A DNA stretch of 32,000 nucleotides from Candidatus Nanosynbacter sp. BB002 (GCF_037013405.1 NZ_CP146064.1:660001-692000); one strand, 5' to 3'; counted from the stretch's first letter, positions 13,204 to 28,574 are shown. Numbers and translations: made by a program. Notes: a model not told the origin generated them from the sequence alone.

Positions 13204-14636
13204 GTTGTCTTCTGCTTGGCACGGCGTGCAGTCGTGCGAGTGTGAGTGAACTGCCTGGCCGCGTCAGACGATAGCATCAGGATAATCGTGATATTAATAC
13301 CGATGAACGCCAGGGTGCCAACGCTTGTCCAGGTGATTTTACCGATGGTCAAGGTGAATGACGTTGCCAACACTGACAGGCTCGACAATATCATCAAGAG
13401 TAATCGGTCTTTGTTCGAGCCGCGGAACGTACCTCGTGACAGCACAGCTGTTACTAAGATCCAACCCGCGCTCAAACTCAGCACTCCTCGAATCGTCCAC
13501 TCCGCTCCTGTGGCGGCCACAGAAGTGTCCAAGCCCTCAACGATAAAGTCCTGGGTTGTCTGATGCAACAATTCGTCAAACAACAGAAAATCAAACAAGG
13601 CGCCCATCAGGACAATCGCTATAGCCAAAACGGTAAACAAAATAGCAAACGATATTTGCGGCGGTCGGCGATTCCATAATTGTTGCAGCACCGTATCGTG
13701 TTCTTCCGCGGAGATGGCATATTCATGCGCGGTTGCATCCAAAATAAGCCCTGCTCTTTCGGCAATTGTCTGCTGATTTGCTACAACTGCCGCCAGTTCC
13801 AAGACCGGCAAGTCACCATCCGTCTGAATACTGTCGCCCCCACCATTGCGCGAGTGATAACCCGTCGAAAAGTCTTTCAAATTTGTCACTGCCACCTGCG
13901 GTGTGTGCTCAGTGACGGTCTTCACGATATAGTCACGCTCGATGTCAGTATTTTCATCAATTTTATGAGTAACTTGCAGAGTAAACAATGACAATCCAAC
14001 ACTTTTGTCGTATGTCCCTGCTGCCAGCCAATCGACCTGATGGCCACCAGGCAGCAACCAGCCCTGAGGGCAGCGCCAAAACCGCACGTGATGACGTTTG
14101 CCAGGGCTACCGTCTACTTCTTGCTGATAGGCAAAATCTTGACGACGACCAAACAAGAATAGTGATGACACAGGAGCTGAAGCATAGCTCCTGCCAGTCA
14201 GCGTAGAAAAAATTATCTTCCAAGCTGACCGAACGGTGATTTCATCAGCAATCGTCCAACCAGCATCAATCATCACTTGATGTAGCTGGGCTTCTGAGCC
14301 TCTGAGCGCCACATTGACTGGGTCACCTAATAATCCGTCAGCAGTCCGCGTACGACCAATGAAATAGTTTGGCACATACAAACTACTTAAAATACGGTGT
14401 AGCCGAGGCAAAGCTAAGTATGCCATGATAACCCAAAACAGCGCAAAAAACGCCACCAGCCACCAACCGCCAGAATACCAGCCCTCACGCCAAACCAACC
14501 AACCGAACCAAAATGAAGCCAAACCGGCCAACAAGAAAAACGCCTGGTCGATCAGCGCAGACAATGACCATGGCGAACGACGCAGGGCCGAAGCTCGTTT
14601 TTGGATATGGTCAGAAACCTGGTGACGATAACTCAT
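13200..14636 (-). CDS. Membrane protein with an LssY-C-terminus-like domain (478 aa)
   Basis: N-terminal TM helices are followed by ..GDPVNVALRGSEAQLHQVMIDAGWTIADEITVRSAWKI...SAPVSSLFLFGRRQDFAYQQEVDGSPGKRHHVRFW..AAGTYDKSVGLSLFTLQVTHKIDENTDIERDY. This matches my memory of the LssY_C family pattern. Extra TM helices occur at the C-terminus. Confidence 0.6.
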   Translation of the reverse strand: MSYRHQVSDHIQKRASALRRSPWSLSALIDQAFFLLAGLASFWFGWLVWREGWYSGGWWLVAFFALFWVIMAYLALPRLHRILSSLYVPNYFIGRTRTADGLLGDPVNVALRGSEAQLHQVMIDAGWTIADEITVRSAWKIIFSTLTGRSYASAPVSSLFLFGRRQDFAYQQEVDGSPGKRHHVRFWRCPQGWLLPGGHQVDWLAAGTYDKSVGLSLFTLQVTHKIDENTDIERDYIVKTVTEHTPQVAVTNLKDFSTGYHSRNGGGDSIQTDGDLPVLELAAVVANQQTIAERAGLILDATAHEYAISAEEHDTVLQQLWNRRPPQISFAILFTVLAIAIVLMGALFDFLLFDELLHQTTQDFIVEGLDTSVAATGAEWTIRGVLSLSAGWILVTAVLSRGTFRGSNKDRLLLMILSSLSVLATSFTLTIGKITWTSVGTLAFIGINITIILMLSSDAARQFTHTRTTARRAKQKTT

Positions 14637-15355
14637 ACGATACTATTATACTGTCGAATATTTTCTAAAAGCCTCCTTGCGGCCAAACGGGCTTCATCGT
14701 CTTGCTGGTTAAACAAGTCACCCCGTTCAATGATGTCATGACAGACACGGACCGCTCTATCAAGGTCATCATTAATAATAACATGATAATACGGTACAGA
14801 AAGTGCTTGTGTCATTTCTTTGATAGAACTAGCCAGCCGTTTCGGCCATTCAGCGTGAAATGCTTCCTCGGTAGTATACCGACTTTTCAGACGAGTCAGC
14901 CAGGTTTCGTAGTCGGGAGGTATGATAAAAATTGAAATACTTTGCGGAGCTAAAATCTCATATTCAGCAGCGCCTTGCACATCAATATCAGCGATGACTG
15001 TTTTGTTTTGTTCATAGGCCGCCCGAATCTCAGCCGCTGAAGTGCCATAGACTGTGCCATGAACAAATTTAGCCTCAATAAATTCTTGATTTCTCAACAT
15101 TTGTGCAGCCATGGTCGAGTCGATGAAATGGTAATCGACACCGTCAACTTCTGGACGATTATTGTTAATACGCGGCGCACGAGTTGTGTGCGAAACGATG
15201 CTGCTAAAATCTGGAATCTGCAATAATCGCTTTTTGATGGTGTCTTTACCGGCGCCAGAGATGCCAGTCAATAGGGCAATCTTGGCTTTCTTGATCAGCT
15301 CGACGGTTGGCTCAGCTGGTTGATAATTAGCAATCAACCGCTCCAATTCGTCCAT
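14633..15355 (-). CDS. gmk: Guanylate kinase-like nucleoside monophosphate kinase (241 aa)
   Basis: It has a P-loop (LLTGISGAGKDT) and the guanylate-kinase signature SHTTRAPR...VDGVDYHFI...EFIE..FVHGTVYGTS. I place the start at MDELERL (ATG 15353-15355). The 93 upstream codons of the track ORF run out of frame through the neighbouring gene's Pro/Thr linker and are an artefact. Confidence 0.8.
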   Translation of the reverse strand: MDELERLIANYQPAEPTVELIKKAKIALLTGISGAGKDTIKKRLLQIPDFSSIVSHTTRAPRINNNRPEVDGVDYHFIDSTMAAQMLRNQEFIEAKFVHGTVYGTSAAEIRAAYEQNKTVIADIDVQGAAEYEILAPQSISIFIIPPDYETWLTRLKSRYTTEEAFHAEWPKRLASSIKEMTQALSVPYYHVIINDDLDRAVRVCHDIIERGDLFNQQDDEARLAARRLLENIRQYNSIV

Positions 15356-15359
15356 GCGT

Positions 15360-16610
15360 TTAGCTGTTCCTACGTTTGACGATCCAAAGGATACCTGCAC
15401 CAATACCAACAGCTGCGAGTGAAGCGAGTGGCCAGACATTGTCACCAGTGTCAGCCAAGTAACCTTTGCCAGTTGGCTTTGTTGGCTGGGCAACTGGCGC
15501 ACCGGGATTGGTTGGCTGAGCAGGAGTTGGTGTTGGGGTTGGCGTCGGGGTTGGTGTTGGTGGGGTTGGTGGGGTCGGTGGGGTCGGTGGAGTGACTGGC
15601 GCTTCCTTAACGGTCGCGGTACTGATGAAGCCATTGTTCATAGCCGCCGCAATGCGAGCACCGTCGCTAGACATCGCGATAGAGGACCAGGCGCCAGTTG
15701 CAGCCGTGGTTTGCTCTTCCCAGGTAGCACCTGAGTCACTTGAAACATATATTACGCCACCAGTGACGGTTGCAGCCAATTTAGTGCCGTCTGCAGAGCT
15801 GGTGATGGCAGTCCAAGCACGATTGCCGGAAGCGGCTTGTTCTTGCCAGGTCACACCTGCGTCATTTGAGGTGTAAACCGCGCCGCCATTGACAGTCGCG
15901 GCGAGTTTAGTACCATCGCTTGATCCAGTGATGGCAGTCCAGGCACGGTTGCCAGAACCGACTTGTTCTGTCCACGTTACACCTGAATCATTTGAAGTAA
16001 ATACTGCACCACCAGTAACGGTTGCAGCCAGTTTGGTGCCGTCAGCAGAGCTGGTGATTGAGGTCCAAGCACGGTTGCCGGAACCAGCCTGCGGTGTCCA
16101 CGTTGCGCCTGAGTTACTGGAAGTAAATACTGCGCCGTTTTTAGCTGTTGCAGCCAGTTTGGTGCCGTCAGCAGAGCTGGTGATTGAGGTCCAATCAAAA
16201 GAACCACCCGTTATACCATTGCTTCTCCAGGTTTGACCTCTATCCTCTGAGGTTAAAATGTAACCACCCCAGTGGTACACACCAGCCAATTTAGTACCGT
16301 CAGCAGAGCTGGTGATCGCAATCCAGGCGCGAGAGCCAGAGTCAACTCGCTCAGTCCAAGTCAAACCAGCATCATCTGATATATATACTGAACCGCCGCT
16401 CATAGTTGCAGCGAGCTTATTACCGTCAGCAGAGCTAGCAATTGAAGTCCAAGGGCGACTACCAGAACCAGCCTGTTCTGTCCATGTAACTATTTGTTTT
16501 GCATTAGCTGATTGGCTAAATACCGCAATCACCGCAGCAATTACCACCAAACACCCTGCCTTAGCAGCGCGGGCTATTGTTCTTTTTCTATTACCCCAGA
16601 GCGACCCCAT
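15360..16610 (-). CDS. Cell-surface Asp-box (BNR-like) 7-blade beta-propeller protein with a Pro/Thr linker and an LADTG sorting signal (416 aa)
   Basis: The signal/TM segment is AGCLVVIAAVIAVFSQSANA. Asp boxes recur about every 42 aa: ISDDAGLTWT, TSEDRGQTWR, TSSNSGATWT, TSNDSGVTWT, TSNDAGVTWQ, VSSDSGATWE. The linker is (PTP)n. The C-terminus is YLADTG (LADTG at 15444-15458), a hydrophobic helix and KRRNS. It is a paralogue of the propeller module in the 1105-aa protein. Confidence 0.88.
   Translation of the reverse strand: MGSLWGNRKRTIARAAKAGCLVVIAAVIAVFSQSANAKQIVTWTEQAGSGSRPWTSIASSADGNKLAATMSGGSVYISDDAGLTWTERVDSGSRAWIAITSSADGTKLAGVYHWGGYILTSEDRGQTWRSNGITGGSFDWTSITSSADGTKLAATAKNGAVFTSSNSGATWTPQAGSGNRAWTSITSSADGTKLAATVTGGAVFTSNDSGVTWTEQVGSGNRAWTAITGSSDGTKLAATVNGGAVYTSNDAGVTWQEQAASGNRAWTAITSSADGTKLAATVTGGVIYVSSDSGATWEEQTTAATGAWSSIAMSSDGARIAAAMNNGFISTATVKEAPVTPPTPPTPPTPPTPTPTPTPTPTPAQPTNPGAPVAQPTKPTGKGYLADTGDNVWPLASLAAVGIGAGILWIVKRRNS
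15522..15593 (-). repeat. Low-complexity Pro/Thr-coding microsatellite-like tract
   Basis: GGTGTTGGGGTTGGCGTCGGGGTTGGTGTTGGTGGGGTTGGTGGGGTCGGTGGGGTCGGTGG encodes TPPTPPTPPTPPTPTPTPTPTPTP. Confidence 0.8.
16021..16194 (-). repeat. Exact 48-nt direct repeat spaced one blade (126 nt) apart
   Basis: GTTGCAGCCAGTTTGGTGCCGTCAGCAGAGCTGGTGATTGAGGTCCAA occurs at 16021-16068 and again at 16147-16194. Confidence 0.9.
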
Positions 16611-16717: not shown

Positions 16718-17176
16718 TTATAACAGTTCACGCAAAATGGCTTGCCAATCAGGAAATTCATCTGAACCAAACCGTATCAATCGCCCTGAAAAGTCACCCG
16801 CACCATTTGCCGTCCGATCATCGATCAAGATATCGCCTCGACTCAGATGCTTGACCGATGAAAAAACAACCTTGCGAAAGAAAATATTCTCCCGACCATC
16901 GCCGCCAAAATACTTCTTCACCCACGCCAGTTTATCACCCAGTGCCGTCGGATTCTCCCATGGCGATGACGACAGGATATATAAATCATACTTTTCCTTC
17001 AGCTTATCAACCGCCTCGAGGGCGCCCGGCATCGGATCCATCAGTGCAAAAACACCCGGAATATTATCATATTCACCCGCAAACTTCTCAAGCATCTCAG
17101 GCAGGACCTTCGTCAAAGCCGACGTAAAGTCGACCAGTACGCCGTCCATATCAATATAAATAATTGGTTTCTTCAT
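16718..17176 (-). CDS. 5'(3')-deoxyribonucleotidase-like HAD-family phosphatase (NT5C type)
   Basis: It has the HAD motif I IYIDMDGVLVDF, then ..YDLYILSS.. and ..ILIDDR. Size (about 152 aa) and motif spacing fit the NT5C family. Confidence 0.65.
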   Translation of the reverse strand: MKKPIIYIDMDGVLVDFTSALTKVLPEMLEKFAGEYDNIPGVFALMDPMPGALEAVDKLKEKYDLYILSSSPWENPTALGDKLAWVKKYFGGDGRENIFFRKVVFSSVKHLSRGDILIDDRTANGAGDFSGRLIRFGSDEFPDWQAILRELL

Positions 17177-17178
17177 AA

Positions 17179-18141
17179 TCAATCCCTCTTTAACATCACC
17201 GTAAACGCTTCTGACGGAATGTCAACCTTGCCGAAGCGTTTCATGCGCTTTTTACCACGAGCTTGCTTGGCGAGGAGTTTCTTTTTGCGACTGACGTCGC
17301 CACCATATAGGTAGCCAGTAACGTCTTTACGGTAAGCACCGATGTTCTCGCGGGCAATGAATCTACCGCCAATCGCCGCCTGCAACGCCACCTCAAAGCT
17401 CTGGCGCGGCACCACGTCTTTGAGTTTTTTGACGATTTCCCGGCCCAAGCCTGGCGCCTCAGAGCGGTGACACATCACACTTAGCGCATCAACCATCTCG
17501 CCCGCCACATAAAAATCCACCCGTACCAAATCTTCCGGCCGGTAGCCCACCAGCTCATAATTAAACGAACCATAGCCGCTGGTGGCCGACTTCAGTTGAT
17601 CATAAAAATCCGTCAGCAGATTTGCCAGCGGCGCCGTAAAGGAAATCAGTGCCCGCTCATCGATGTAGCTAAGGTTTTTTTGCCGGCCGCGCTTGGCGAC
17701 AATCAGCTGAATCACCGCACCAATATAATCTTGTGGCACTACAATTTCACCGTCAATCCACGGCTCGCGAACCTCGGTAATTTGTGCTGGGTCAGGTAGT
17801 TCGCTGGCCGACTTAATATCCAACTCCTCGCCATTGGTGAGGCTGACTTGATAATCAGTACTCGGATTGGTGACGATGAGATCCAAATTATACTCGCGCT
17901 CCAGCCGCTCACGAATGATATCCATATGGAGCAAACCAAGAAAGCCGATCCGCACACCATAGCCCAGCACCGGCGAATTTTCCGGCTCAAACTGCAGCGC
18001 CGAATCACTGAGACTCAACTTCTCAATCGCCTCCTTCAGGTCATTATAATCTTCGTTAGACACCGGGAAGAAGCCCGCATAGACGAAGGGCTTGACTTCT
18101 TTGTAGCCAGGGAGGGGCTGGACAGTAATTTTTTCAGTCAT
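17179..18141 (-). CDS. lepA: Elongation factor 4 (LepA), C-terminal fragment (domains III, V and the LepA C-terminal domain) of a split gene
   Basis: MTEKITVQPLPGYKEVKPFVYAGFFPV..YNDLKEAIEKLSLSDSALQFEPENSPVLGYGVRIGFLGLLHMDIIRERLEREYNLDLIVTNPS... is collinear with the region of E. coli and B. subtilis LepA that follows ..ALPGF/Y.KVKP.VYAGL.P. It ends with the basic LepA_C tail. Confidence 0.93.
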   Translation of the reverse strand: MTEKITVQPLPGYKEVKPFVYAGFFPVSNEDYNDLKEAIEKLSLSDSALQFEPENSPVLGYGVRIGFLGLLHMDIIRERLEREYNLDLIVTNPSTDYQVSLTNGEELDIKSASELPDPAQITEVREPWIDGEIVVPQDYIGAVIQLIVAKRGRQKNLSYIDERALISFTAPLANLLTDFYDQLKSATSGYGSFNYELVGYRPEDLVRVDFYVAGEMVDALSVMCHRSEAPGLGREIVKKLKDVVPRQSFEVALQAAIGGRFIARENIGAYRKDVTGYLYGGDVSRKKKLLAKQARGKKRMKRFGKVDIPSEAFTVMLKRD

Positions 18142-18149
18142 TGTGTCAT

Positions 18150-18158
18150 ATTATAGCA
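18150..18158 (-). promoter_or_regulatory. Extended -10 element (TGCTATAAT) 8 nt upstream of the lepA C-fragment ATG
   Basis: The minus strand reads TGCTATAAT-atgacaca-ATG, with no Shine-Dalgarno sequence between them. This suggests an independent, leaderless or near-leaderless transcript. Confidence 0.5.
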
Positions 18159-18201
18159 TTTTACAGAGATACCGTCGAATCACCGTGTTAGTTTATATTC
18201 C

Positions 18202-18753
18202 TCACGGAGTATACGACGTGTGCATATCAACTCGCCTCGAAGGTGAGGCTAATGGATACATATAGGGCAGTTCTCTGTTTGGCACAATATCATAATATCG
18301 ACGATACCGGTCGTCATTAAATTCAGACTCATTACCCTTAACGAAATGTAGCGCTGGATGGTTCCTCGAAGTAGTACCACGCTTCACCAATAATCCAACA
18401 TGCGACCACGTTTCCGACGTGACGTCTGGCTCCAGCCCGTACTTAGCAAGCAACAAGGCAATGATAGGTTTGCGGATGACCGAGGTAGTTCCTGGTTCAA
18501 GACCAAGCGCAGGAGTTACCTCCTCAAAGAAATATTCCAACATGGACGTGCCAGCCCGATATTCAGACGGAGCATCACGAAACAGCATGCCAGCGAAGCA
18601 CGCCTTTTCGCCAAGCCTCACATAGCTAAGCCGCGCCATGGGCTTCTCCGCATTTTCCCCAAACATAATTCTTTCTACTCCAGACGGCGCAGTTCGCGCA
18701 TGAGCTGGAACGCGGTCTCCATTGGCAAACGTAATTGGCGGTAAATCATTCAT
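18202..18753 (-). CDS. Hypothetical protein (183 aa) encoded inside the lepA interruption
   Basis: It is the only long ORF in this interval and is co-oriented with lepA. I recognise no family. It is preceded by a 154-nt structured non-coding region. Confidence 0.6.
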   Translation of the reverse strand: MNDLPPITFANGDRVPAHARTAPSGVERIMFGENAEKPMARLSYVRLGEKACFAGMLFRDAPSEYRAGTSMLEYFFEEVTPALGLEPGTTSVIRKPIIALLLAKYGLEPDVTSETWSHVGLLVKRGTTSRNHPALHFVKGNESEFNDDRYRRYYDIVPNRELPYMYPLASPSRRVDMHTSYTP

Positions 18754-18907
18754 AGCTAATCATAATATTTTCTTACTGTCACCGTATCGCTCGTCCCTTT
18801 GAGGACAGCGATAGTGCCGTCAAGCAATGACTCGGCAGCTATCTGTGACAGATTATCAGATTATACTATACCATCTTAAGTTAATTATGTCTATGAAATA
18901 AACGATT

Positions 18908-19597
18908 CTACTGATTAGCATACCGCTCGATACGCTTAGCCCGCAGTGTTAGCATGTCAGTCAAGTCCTGCAGATATACTGTGTACTGCTCAACGGTCTG
19001 AGGCAACGGTGACGATTGGAAATTATCAAAATCTGTTAGTATGTTAACTTGGTATTCGTCATCAACAAAATCTTGCAACAAGAAAAAATCGACATAGCCC
19101 CGAAAATCACCAAACCACTCAAAAAAGTCACCATAACGATCAAAAACATCAGCCAGCGGACTGTCTTCACCCCGATACCAGCGGGCAATACATTCTAACG
19201 TTAGGTCAAATCGATCACCAATTTTGCGATGCCAGCCTCTCGCACGATTGATGGTTTGCGTACCGCCGCGTAATTCGCTGGGGAAGATAATTTCTGAACC
19301 AATACGCCAATCAATATTATCTATTGCCGCTAGAACATCTCGTGGGGTCTGTTCAACAATCAACTTATTACGCTTCCAAGCTTCAAAGGTAGCTACTATA
19401 TTATCACTTGAAACAGGAATCTGACACTGGCCGTCACTGGCTATCAAGTACGACCCCTCATCTAGCATAGTCAGTTGACGACCATTAGGCAGTGGTTTAG
19501 TCCATAGCTCAGCGTGATAGCGTTTTAACGTCAGGCTGTGCTGATCTGGGTCTTTATTATTAGCGTCTTGCCGACAGTCAAACCAAGGATCAATCAT
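18908..19597 (-). CDS. Hypothetical protein (229 aa) encoded inside the lepA interruption
   Basis: The ATG lies 2 nt after the stop of the lepA N-fragment. The sequence is motif-rich and looks globular (..NNKDPDQHSLTLKRYHAELWTKPLPNG.., ..GGTQTINRARGWHRKIGDRFDLTLECIARWYRGEDSPL.., ..FGDFRGYVDFFLLQDFV..). I cannot assign a function. Confidence 0.65.
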   Translation of the reverse strand: MIDPWFDCRQDANNKDPDQHSLTLKRYHAELWTKPLPNGRQLTMLDEGSYLIASDGQCQIPVSSDNIVATFEAWKRNKLIVEQTPRDVLAAIDNIDWRIGSEIIFPSELRGGTQTINRARGWHRKIGDRFDLTLECIARWYRGEDSPLADVFDRYGDFFEWFGDFRGYVDFFLLQDFVDDEYQVNILTDFDNFQSSPLPQTVEQYTVYLQDLTDMLTLRAKRIERYANQ

Positions 19598-19599
19598 CG

Positions 19600-20559
19600 C
19601 TAGCCTATATACTTCTTCAACGTCACCGTATCACCCACCCGCGCTTCACGCGTGGTTTTGAGGTTGGTGACAATGTAACCAATTTCACCAGTGTCCAGCG
19701 ATGGGTCGGGGATCATGCCAGGACTAAGATGACCAACTTCCAGCGCCAAGCCGTTCGCGCCAGTTGCCATCATGTGAATTGCGTCGCCTTTCTTAATTTG
19801 CCCATCAACCACCCTGACATACAAAATCACCCCACGGTAATCATCATAATAACTGTCAAAAATCAGCGCCCGTGTCGGCATATCAGCCAACACAACATCA
19901 GGATGCTCGACCGCCAGTGGCGAAGTCGGCGCCGGAATTCGCTCAACAATCGCCTCCAAAACTTGATCAACATTCTGTCCCGTTTTAGCGGAAATATGAA
20001 TAATCTCACTCTCGTCACAGCCTAGCAGATTGATCACCTGCTTGGATACTCGCGGCACATCAGCGGCCGGCAAATCAACCTTGTTGAGCACCGGAATAAT
20101 TGTGAGGTCCTGCTCCATCGCCAAGTACACATTCGCCAGCGTCTGCGCCTGGATACCCTGGCTGGCGTCGACCACCAACACCGCCCCCTCGCACGCCTGC
20201 AAGCTGCGCGACACTTCATAACTAAAATCAACGTGACCGGGCGTGTCGATGAGGTTGAGATCATACGACCCAGCCAGTGGCAATCCTTCCGATGAATCGA
20301 TAACCCTGTCGCTGGCGTCGCCTGCGACATTCGATTCAGAGGAAGCGGTTGCCGCTGGCTGGCGGTAATGATACTTCATCCGCACCGGCGCAAGCTTAAT
20401 GGTAATGCCCTTCTCGCGCTCGAGATCCATACTATCCAGCAGCTGCGATTTCATCTCGCGCTTCTCCACCGTCCCCGTCATCTCCATCATTCGGTCAGCC
20501 AGCGTCGATTTGCCGTGATCGATGTGAGCGATGATGCAAAAATTGCGGATAGCTTTCAT
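19600..20559 (-). CDS. lepA: Elongation factor 4 (LepA), N-terminal fragment (GTPase domain plus domain II) of a split gene
   Basis: It has G1 ([20 protein letters not shown]), G3 ([10 protein letters not shown]) and G4 (LNKVDL), then a beta-barrel domain II ending ..[16 protein letters not shown]. The break falls exactly at the domain II/III linker of full-length LepA. Confidence 0.93.
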
Positions 20560-25044: not shown

Positions 25045-25121
25045 GGCACCGTAGCTCAGCTGGTTAGAGCGCAGGACTCATAAGCCTGAGGTCGGTGGTT
25101 CGGGTCCACCCGGTGCTACCA
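25045..25121 (+). tRNA. tRNA with CAT anticodon (elongator Met or Ile2/lysidine type, not the initiator)
   Basis: GGCACCGTAGCTCAGCTGGTTAGAGCGCAGGACTCATAAGCCTGAGGTCGGTGGTTCGGGTCCACCCGGTGCTACCA. It folds as a cloverleaf with a G1:U72 pair, the anticodon loop CTCATAA and an encoded CCA. Confidence 0.88.
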
Positions 25122-27922: not shown

Positions 27923-27998
27923 GGGGGCGTAGCTCAGGGGTTAGAGCAGTCGGCTCATAACCGATTGGTCGCTGGTTCGATCCCAGCCGCCCCCACCA
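27923..27998 (+). tRNA. tRNA with CAT anticodon (elongator Met or Ile2/lysidine type)
   Basis: GGGGGCGTAGCTCAGGGGTTAGAGCAGTCGGCTCATAACCGATTGGTCGCTGGTTCGATCCCAGCCGCCCCCACCA. It has a fully paired acceptor stem, the anticodon loop CTCATAA and an encoded CCA. Confidence 0.88.
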
Positions 27999-28497: not shown

Positions 28498-28574
28498 CGC
28501 GGGGTAGAGCAGCCTGGTAGCTCGTTTGGCTCATAACCAAAAGGTCGTAGGTTCAAATCCTACCCCCGCAACCA
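28498..28574 (+). tRNA. Initiator tRNA-fMet (CAT)
   Basis: CGCGGGGTAGAGCAGCCTGGTAGCTCGTTTGGCTCATAACCAAAAGGTCGTAGGTTCAAATCCTACCCCCGCAACCA. It shows the C1xA72 mismatch and an overall close resemblance to bacterial tRNA-fMet. The anticodon stem has only two G:C pairs next to the loop. Confidence 0.88.

Follow-up and report, generated by a model that had tools for sequence, protein, structure and literature searches.

A lepA gene carried as two half-genes

In Candidatus Nanosynbacter sp. BB002, the gene for the translational GTPase EF4 (lepA) is present as two half-genes with unrelated genes between them. Within the 32,000-nucleotide (nt) stretch of the genome that we analyzed (NZ_CP146064.1:660001-692000; "the window," whose coordinates are used below), the upstream half, lepA-N (19600..20559, minus strand), encodes 319 amino acids (aa) spanning the G domain and domain II of EF4, its C-terminal end being followed by TAG, while the downstream half, lepA-C (17179..18141, minus strand), encodes a 320-aa protein that starts with MTEKITVQPLPGYK and comprises domains III and V plus the LepA C-terminal domain (CTD). 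The halves lie 1.46 kb apart, and the gap holds two further open reading frames (ORFs): ORF229 (18908..19597), the gene for a 229-aa DUF6994 protein, and ORF183 (18202..18753), which encodes 183 aa. All four ORFs are co-oriented on the minus strand, and the start codon of the DUF6994 gene falls 2 nt past the lepA-N stop (TAGCGATG). An earlier, sequence-only reading of this locus had described patches of low guanine-plus-cytosine content in the insert; that is correct for ORF229 (44.5%) and for the 154-nt spacer between the two insert genes (38%) but not for ORF183 (50%), the values for the window, lepA-N and lepA-C being 48.8%, 53% and 52%.

Comparisons with known EF4 proteins place the cut precisely. 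Against TIGR01393, the NCBIfam equivalog model for lepA, lepA-N spans model positions 1-277 and lepA-C positions 278-594, with scores of 400.9 and 434.7 bits that sum to 835; the model's cutoff is 533.9 bits, which neither half reaches alone. In Pfam, lepA-N matches GTP_EFTU (6.8e-55) and GTP_EFTU_D2, both past their cut-offs, and lepA-C matches LepA_C (1.5e-42) and EFG_C (2.6e-20), with an EFG_III match that stays under the gathering score. Both halves are 50-60% identical to EF4 proteins of solved structure (E. coli 3CB4, T. thermophilus 5IMQ/4W2E and A. aeolicus 2YWE), and with these as reference, the lepA-N alignment ends at E. coli residue 277 and the lepA-C alignment begins at residue 283. 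The three comparisons confirm what the sequence-only reading had claimed: the cut site is the domain II/III linker of EF4, zero residues have been lost, and each half has its own stop or start. The full, colinear EF4 domain set is thus present, but it is distributed over two ORFs rather than encoded as a single polypeptide, here as in about 30 species.

The split is not an assembly artifact. The same gene order was found on 22 contigs examined from independent metagenome assemblies (the sequence index counts 68 blocks), and the split recurs in Nanosynbacter lyticus TM7x, a cultured strain with a complete genome (CP007496; lepA-N in the 598889-617818 region), which disposes of the concern that the insert might be an assembly chimera. 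The closest named homologues place the window in an oral Nanosynbacter (Saccharibacteria/TM7). Every one of the best 120 lepA-N homologues in the database is 286-363 aa long; a protein-representative search with lepA-N returned a mixture of full-length proteins and metagenomic fragments, which carry no gene context. Among split alleles, lepA-N has a ratio of nonsynonymous to synonymous divergence (dN/dS) of 0.03-0.11 and lepA-C one of 0.017-0.04, synonymous divergence (dS) ranging from 0.3 to saturation, and neither half contains an internal stop in any of the approximately 30 split species. Both halves are selectively maintained under strong purifying selection, which bears out the earlier expectation that they are functional. 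Reduced genomes from the candidate phyla radiation (CPR) lose many genes, and this, together with the failure of each half alone to reach the TIGR01393 cutoff, could be taken to mean that the halves are pseudogene remnants of a dying lepA. Set against the agreement of the independent contigs with a finished genome, the low dN/dS at large dS, the uninterrupted reading frames and the combined score of 835 bits, however, we attach next to no credence to either misassembly or decay.

lepA-C appears to be equipped for its own expression. A promoter-like site, TCGACG-17-(TGC)TATAAT, lies at 18150..18178 (minus strand), and its TGCTATAAT box ends 8 nt ahead of the lepA-C ATG, as the sequence-only reading had noted; this position would imply a leaderless mRNA or one with a very short leader. 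The element is common to most Nanosynbacter-type split loci, which have a TATAAT-like box (mostly TGnTATAAT) approximately 7-15 nt before the lepA-C ATG despite differing upstream cassettes, whereas most environmental split loci have a GGAGG-type Shine-Dalgarno sequence there instead. In the oral lineages, lepA-C is therefore probably expressed independently, in a leaderless manner.

Scans of both halves with Pfam and NCBIfam returned translation-factor/GTPase families only and no intein fragments, and an Rfam search of the gap returned no group I/II intron and no other known RNA. Because there is no room for intein fragments and no intron or Rfam RNA, the halves would have to act as separate polypeptides. 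The arrangement otherwise recalls the "fractured genes" that have split inteins and, in between, a gene for a homing endonuclease (Dassa et al., 2009, PMC2677866): in both, a conserved gene lies in two same-strand pieces with one or more foreign ORFs between them. lepA differs in having no intein halves, and lepA-N ends 3-15 aa past domain II; with tails this short and no inteins, protein trans-splicing is impossible.

One break point with changing contents

For a survey of relatives, we scanned for lepA-C in one genome per species and examined 80 Saccharibacteria loci (cited below by L numbers) with 10-kb flanks, using tblastn and ORF analysis. The same II/III split occurs in about 30 of the 80 species genomes, and lepA is a single, intact ORF in at least 46, while the gene order TilS-FtsH-MurJ-lepA-(Gmk)-HrcA-GrpE is conserved throughout. 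Every split allele has the same break point: lepA-N ends with ...GDTVT[LM][KRGA][KR]Y, followed by a tail that varies and is 1-15 aa long, and lepA-C begins 2-6 aa ahead of (V/I)(Q/E)PLPGYK. Intact alleles read GDTVTV.R, then approximately 5 aa, then PLPGYK, and they define the empty site for which the sequence-only reading had suggested a search. That reading had also considered an ancient fission, in which all relatives would carry half-genes with no cassette; this is not so, given the number of intact alleles and given that none of the approximately 30 split loci has an empty II/III gap. Full-text searching of the literature found no paper on a split lepA, in keeping with the earlier statement that no such case was known.

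A second, independent lepA fission, insert-free and at the boundary of the G domain and domain II, occurs in another Saccharibacteria clade, consisting of oral "Saccharimonas sp." and a relative (L055, L058, L059, L060 and L076). After ...IPSPKEI, a TAA overlaps the ATG of the next ORF (AAGGAGATTTAATG), with an AAGGAG Shine-Dalgarno sequence upstream (L055:9640-9790, L058:8073-8223 and L059/L060:9640-9790); the L076 variant (approximately 610-640) has an in-frame stop and then GTG. Fission of lepA is thus recurrent and tolerated in Saccharibacteria.

The contents of the II/III gap vary widely. Its size ranges from 403 nt to more than 8 kb and its content from 1 to approximately 11 ORFs per locus, roughly 90% of them co-oriented with lepA. 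The cargo falls into about 40 ORF families (39 of which have three or more members or reach 120 aa), the annotated ones, ordinary accessory enzymes, being three NUDIX families, MazG/dUTPase-like, Ham1/ITPase, GrpB, SDR, nitroreductase, peptidase S51, DUF218, AlkD-like DNA alkylation repair, SemiSWEET, HTH-Fic, EEP, GT4, NTP-transferase, a CCA/polyA-polymerase-Schlafen fusion, and T5orf172, a GIY-YIG-like family found only in L022 and L024, directly after lepA-N. Where the gap holds a single gene, that gene comes from one of six unrelated families (F18, F47, DUF218, AlkD-like, SemiSWEET and F4), and the smallest gaps (403-427 nt) each hold one ORF of 129-135 aa. Even L017, whose FtsH and MurJ are 100% and 99% identical to the window's type, carries DUF218, F27 and ORF183 as cargo. 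In L026 (7107-9959), the only gene in the gap encodes 950 aa, in which a CCA-adding/polyA-polymerase head domain is fused to a Schlafen AlbA_2 domain at the C-terminus.

Since the gaps of other species hold different gene sets, the DUF6994 gene and ORF183 are one cargo variant and not the element that defines the split. The earlier proposal that a discrete, two-gene selfish cassette had cut the gene is not supported: the same break holds about 40 families, DUF6994 is missing from most split loci, and a homologue of ORF183 occurs outside lepA. Among the roles that had been suggested for the insert, a module using lepA as a safe harbor comes closest to the data, whereas a novel discrete mobile element does not fit them. 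As the sequence-only reading had stated, the gap contains no transposase or integrase, at least as judged by Pfam, which recognizes no such domain in the window's gap or in the scanned cargo families. PADLOC and PHROGs searches with ten gap proteins (the window's two and eight from unannotated cargo families) were essentially empty, and the label "defense island" is unsupported for those ten. We also rejected the idea that the cargo had been relocated from beside lepA, as no cargo family was found within 10 kb of the intact lepA loci.

These observations bear on how the break arose. Small mutations, unconnected with any insert, could have given the flexible linker a stop and a new start, with the resulting space colonized later; the insert-free domain I/II fission shows that mutation-type fission of lepA is tolerated, and cargo families F18, F10 and F6 are about as diverged as the flanking genes, which argues for an old island. 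However, none of the approximately 30 II/III-split species has the empty gap that such a course would start from, even the smallest gaps being occupied, and intact alleles with an ancestral-type linker are nested among the split ones, so the split was gained or exchanged repeatedly together with an insert. We consider fission before colonization unlikely; as no empty II/III split was seen, an insertion is the likelier first break.

The genes in the window's gap

ORF229 is a full-length DUF6994 protein (Pfam PF22507, 1.4e-75) and belongs to a strongly conserved family with invariant D7, D11, D16, D18, H28, N117, a D128-R-x-D-L-T-L-E motif, Q175-D176, R219 and R222. Its homologues are patchily distributed in Proteobacteria, Actinobacteria and one archaeon, at about 45% identity; in three distant genomes, the gene is solitary and lies outside split genes, in variable, defense-like surroundings (SRA-ScoMcrA; HepT/MNT; Mrr/NYN/Phd). 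According to the authors of the Pfam entry, the core of DUF6994 is beta-beta-alpha-metal-like and resembles type IV restriction/HNH enzymes, with the catalytic His missing (PMC11701544). The AlphaFold model has a mean predicted local distance difference test (pLDDT) score of 94.5, and its top fold match in the PDB, BrxU/GmrSD, is non-significant (E = 0.75, template modeling [TM] score 0.25). There is no match in PADLOC or PHROGs either, and the standing of this protein as a nuclease is weak, any homing role being putative.

Within split loci, the DUF6994 gene always adjoins one lepA half: it lies 2 nt past lepA-N in the window, L011, L018 and L019, and approximately 80 nt before lepA-C in L014, L020, L022, L027 and L037. 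When the two positions are compared, homology is confined to the ORF itself. Pairwise dS for DUF6994 is 0.07-0.63 in all pairs, even where the host genes are saturated; between L001 and L037, for example, it is 0.48, as against 1.25 for lepA-N, 2.27 for lepA-C and 2.98 for MurJ. Because these values are far below those of the host genes, they imply that DUF6994 moved between lineages more recently than the lineages diverged and is laterally mobile among lepA gaps. A homing nuclease is one way to read this movement, but horizontal exchange of a defense-type gene accounts for the same data. The dN/dS values of the insert genes, 0.09-0.27 for DUF6994 and 0.07-0.23 for ORF183, show purifying selection on both. 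In L014 (5001-5697), DUF6994 is frameshifted into pieces of 178 and 69 aa, and several shortened DUF6994 clusters (136-185 aa) in the protein database suggest occasional decay.

The recent movement of DUF6994 and its position beside a lepA half are what one would expect if a free-standing nuclease gene (DUF6994, or T5orf172 in L022 and L024) cut the II/III linker of lepA alleles that had no insert or no nuclease gene, and repair then copied the nuclease gene plus neighboring cargo into the break, creating the split lepA and spreading it laterally. The identical break in lineages whose sisters have intact lepA, the reported core fold with BrxU as the top structural match, and the placement of the T5orf172 gene straight after lepA-N all suit such homing. 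Most split loci, however, have neither DUF6994 nor T5orf172, and the single-gene inserts come from six other families. The fold match is non-significant, the catalytic His is reported missing, the PHROGs and PADLOC searches gave no match, and the distant DUF6994 homologues are solitary and not in split genes; in addition, DUF6994 is frameshifted in L014, and no clear co-conversion tracts were found. On balance, homing of this type seems quite improbable as the source of the split and of its spread. The same low standing applies to a bolder proposal: that EF4 is here a true two-subunit GTPase, that the break is an actively propagated cassette dock, and that DUF6994 represents a new, His-less family of beta-beta-alpha-metal nucleases that target the linker or its flanks and drive the lateral spread of split alleles and their cargo between Saccharibacteria species. 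This would account for the mixture of intact and split alleles in sister lineages, but we regard it as speculative.

ORF183 is more obscure. It has no match in Pfam, NCBIfam, PADLOC or PHROGs, it is restricted to particular lineages, with only 12 clusters of homologues, and in another genome a 47%-identical homologue stands outside lepA, between rplA and eno. Conservation of the N-terminus begins at Met1, and we therefore take the length of the protein to be 183 aa, not the 145 aa given by gene finders. A low-confidence model (pLDDT 55) gave mostly GNAT acetyltransferases as top Foldseek matches (non-significant, E = 0.26-1.4), and R-x-x-G-x-[GAS] and A-x-x-L-Y-x-K-x-G-[FL]-like motifs can be discerned by eye only; an alignment profile of ORF183 found no match among PDB sequences. 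The protein may possibly adopt a GNAT-like fold.

The spacer between the two insert genes contains a promoter-like site of its own, TAGACA-17-(TG)TATAGT (18865..18893, minus strand; a 10/12 match with an extended -10), which is conserved in all loci that have ORF183 behind DUF6994. Directly before ORF183 lies a decayed, in-frame copy of the last approximately 30 codons of lepA-N (18756..18851, minus strand), which ends in ...ESLLDGTIAVLKGTSDTVTVRKYYD and a stop: it reads ...DTVTVRKYYD, stop, and then TAGCTATG, immediately ahead of ORF183. A 44-nt direct repeat (18745-18788 versus 19589-19632, 70% identity) independently confirms this assignment, and the same copy stands beside ORF183 in L005, L011 and L018. 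We read the copy as a probable recombination scar. The spacer (18756-18866, minus strand) also folds into a stable three-way structure formed from the decayed copy (-36.9 kcal/mol, z = -3.7), whose outer stem, CUGUCAC/GUGACAG, stems from an inverted repeat already present in lepA (GTCACC...GGTGAC). We considered and rejected a structured, functional RNA: the element has been cleanly deleted, between short AGT repeats, in L017 and L019 and is therefore dispensable, and we treat it as a scar.

Probable recombination at the lepA flanks

Similar remnants of lepA occur in other islands. L033 carries, between F14 and ORF183, its own lepA-N end a second time (..TVTLGRYFN, stop); L027 has the lepA-N end of another allele type (TLKKYFE, stop) before F14 and also 92 nt copied from the lepA-C 5' end, with 92% identity; L024, L027 and L037 carry copies of lepA-C aa 5-46 ahead of a nitroreductase gene; and in L077, a copy of the lepA-N end runs in frame into lepA-C. 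L017 retains the last DUF6994 codons, fused to another ORF. A possible third copy of the lepA-N end, before lepA-C in the window (nTVIRRY...), is too weak to call. That older copies of the lepA-N end have been pushed inward suggests that new cargo is added beside lepA-N.

The islands resemble integron arrays in that small, unrelated, promoter-poor accessory genes are strung together in one orientation and appear to grow at one end. They differ in having no IntI integrase and no attI/attC-type repeats that we could find at the cassette boundaries: in four islands examined, there was no recurrent boundary repeat, and the only boundary sequence that recurred was decayed lepA. TVTLKKY-type copies were considered as an attC-like repeat and rejected in that role, since a motif search of all gaps located them only before ORF183-type modules, before F14 (L027 and L033) and before lepA-C in L077.

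Direct repeats of the lepA-N end in some islands, together with the lossless junction, would also suit an excisable element, removed by site-specific recombination to restore a continuous lepA in the manner of skin in sigK or the nifD element. Here, however, no recombinase domain was recognized in the window's gap or the scanned cargo families, and the repeats are decayed (70% identity) and are not found at both island ends. Moreover, the start, stop and promoter of each half have been kept under purifying selection across species for which dS is saturated, and the variable tails would require precise removal. We therefore judge excision highly improbable.

Synonymous divergence provides a second line of evidence for exchange. 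Between L001 and L010, dS is 0 for lepA-N and DUF6994, 0.45 for ORF183, 0.09 for lepA-C and 0.57 for the NT5C nucleotidase gene, a mosaic that places recombination breakpoints inside the island. Throughout the window's species cluster (L001-L019), dS leaps from gene to gene along TilS-GrpE, from 0.00 to approximately 1.0, even between strains whose FtsH proteins are 99-100% identical, which indicates pervasive homologous recombination in this oral Nanosynbacter population. Among more distant species, dS of the lepA halves, HrcA and GrpE is much below that of FtsH, MurJ and TilS. Taken together, the scars and the dS leaps point to turnover by recombination that would be anchored in the lepA flanks.

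lepA persists in these bacteria as two maintained half-genes, and we think it probable that the space separating them serves as a rapidly changing dock for accessory genes, turned over by recombination. In the Saccharimonadaceae clade that includes the oral Nanosynbacter, EF4 is encoded as two polypeptides (domains I-II and domains III-V-CTD), which would have to associate non-covalently, in solution or on the ribosome, to do the work of EF4. Cargo would be inserted co-directionally between the half-genes and translated either by coupling to lepA-N, as the junction in the window suggests, or from small internal promoters, after which lepA-C would be restarted from its own extended -10 promoter (oral lineages) or Shine-Dalgarno site (environmental ones). 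The island would be remodeled by homologous or homology-facilitated illegitimate recombination, or by Campbell-type integration, anchored in the conserved lepA flanks, with DNA probably taken up from relatives and no dedicated recombinase. Each round may leave short pieces of lepA-N (from its 3' end) or lepA-C (from its 5' end) as duplicates in the island, older lepA ends being displaced inward. DUF6994 plus ORF183 are simply the present cargo of the window's species.

Several points weigh against this picture. Three large cargo families, F3, F5 and F7, lack any annotation and could hide a recombinase or a nuclease. Neighbor-joining bootstrap trees (of FtsH+MurJ, of LepA and of both combined, thus from 2-4 markers only) pair intact with split taxa: L046 with L050 (100% bootstrap), L047 with L051 (97%) and L038 with L037 (81-83%), the first of each pair being intact. 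Since intact and split alleles are interleaved in this way, vertical descent plus recombinational turnover alone is insufficient. The test for co-conversion of the flanks came out weak: in lepA-C of L050, only the first 30 nt are identical to the Nanosynbacter type, its sister L046 differing at six sites.

The same trees constrain the history of the split. All split taxa except L052 fall in one larger clade, but the FtsH+MurJ and LepA trees both mix intact and split taxa, so that a single origin of the split appears doubtful. The intact alleles within that clade retain the outgroup-type linker, so they are not simple re-fusions, and the data require either that the split allele was gained laterally several times or that intact alleles replaced it several times. 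In sliding-window and codon-level comparisons, L050 alone gave a hint of co-conversion, the other windows having no clear excess.

Two known systems come closest. In the genes-in-pieces of phages, free-standing homing endonuclease genes divide a host gene, as when mobE splits nrdA in Aeromonas phage Aeh1 (PMC3045599). There as here, the cut in a conserved gene falls between domains and removes nothing, the pieces have each acquired a stop or start, are retained and presumably assemble non-covalently, and relatives carry intact alleles; close relatives of the split Saccharibacteria likewise show presence or absence of the insert at precisely one site. lepA differs in being a cellular gene for a translational GTPase with a hypervariable insert of up to approximately 10 unrelated accessory genes, in having about 40 families at the site and no consistent, recognized homing endonuclease family among them, and in its variable terminal tails, which are unlikely to be acquired interaction domains. 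Flexible (additive/replacement) genomic islands, which lie between conserved core genes and are exchanged through homologous recombination in their flanks, share the fixed position, the strain- or species-specific cargo, the lack of a detected integrase, the mosaic divergence with breakpoints in and around the island, and the duplication and deletion scars. The lepA gap differs from them in that its flanks are the halves of one gene, with boundaries that match the break to the codon, and in that its cargo is nearly all co-oriented and, in part, probably coupled translationally to the upstream half.

As far as we found, EF4/LepA has been described only as a single chain, whereas dozens of species here keep two polypeptides under selection. 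Compared with intact EF4, the halves retain all domains, including the LepA-specific CTD, but have no covalent II-III link. They also have an extra, lineage-specific insertion of approximately 31 aa in the G domain (residues about 66-96; 20272..20364, minus strand), between the switch I strand and DTPGH, where alignment with EF4 of solved structure is broken between query residues 65 and 97; its length varies among strains, with lepA-N ranging from 286 aa (L004) up to 363 aa (P0120). The split provides a natural experiment on whether, in a translocase-like GTPase, the I-II block has to be joined covalently to the III-V block. It also implies that, in ultra-small, integrase-poor CPR genomes, a hypervariable site for accessory genes can sit inside a conserved gene, whose own coding sequence appears to act as the anchor for recombination. 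For practical purposes, the gap is a candidate neutral insertion locus for Saccharibacteria genetics and a candidate strain-typing marker for oral TM7.

The surroundings of the locus provided a few further observations. The region just downstream of lepA-C is also variable (L002:10419-11027, L014:6727-7335 and window 16718-17182): the NT5C gene may be present or absent, and some strains have small genes (Parb-CE-like, 59-202 aa) between lepA-C and NT5C. The window contains four tRNA genes (Rfam RF00005), at 2431-2504 on the minus strand and at 25045-25118, 27923-27995 and 28498-28571 on the plus strand; none adjoins the lepA locus, and the island is therefore not tRNA-targeted. A guanylate kinase ORF lies at 14633-15634, where the 333-aa reading, for which gene callers give 240 aa, overlaps the neighboring gene and probably has an over-extended start. 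That neighbor, at 15360-16610 on the minus strand, encodes a 416-aa protein with approximately seven tandem BNR/sortilin-like repeats ("SSADGTKLAA...GG.V..S.D.G.TW"), a Pro-Thr-rich linker, and a C-terminus of LADTG, a hydrophobic segment and KRRNS that resembles a sorting signal.

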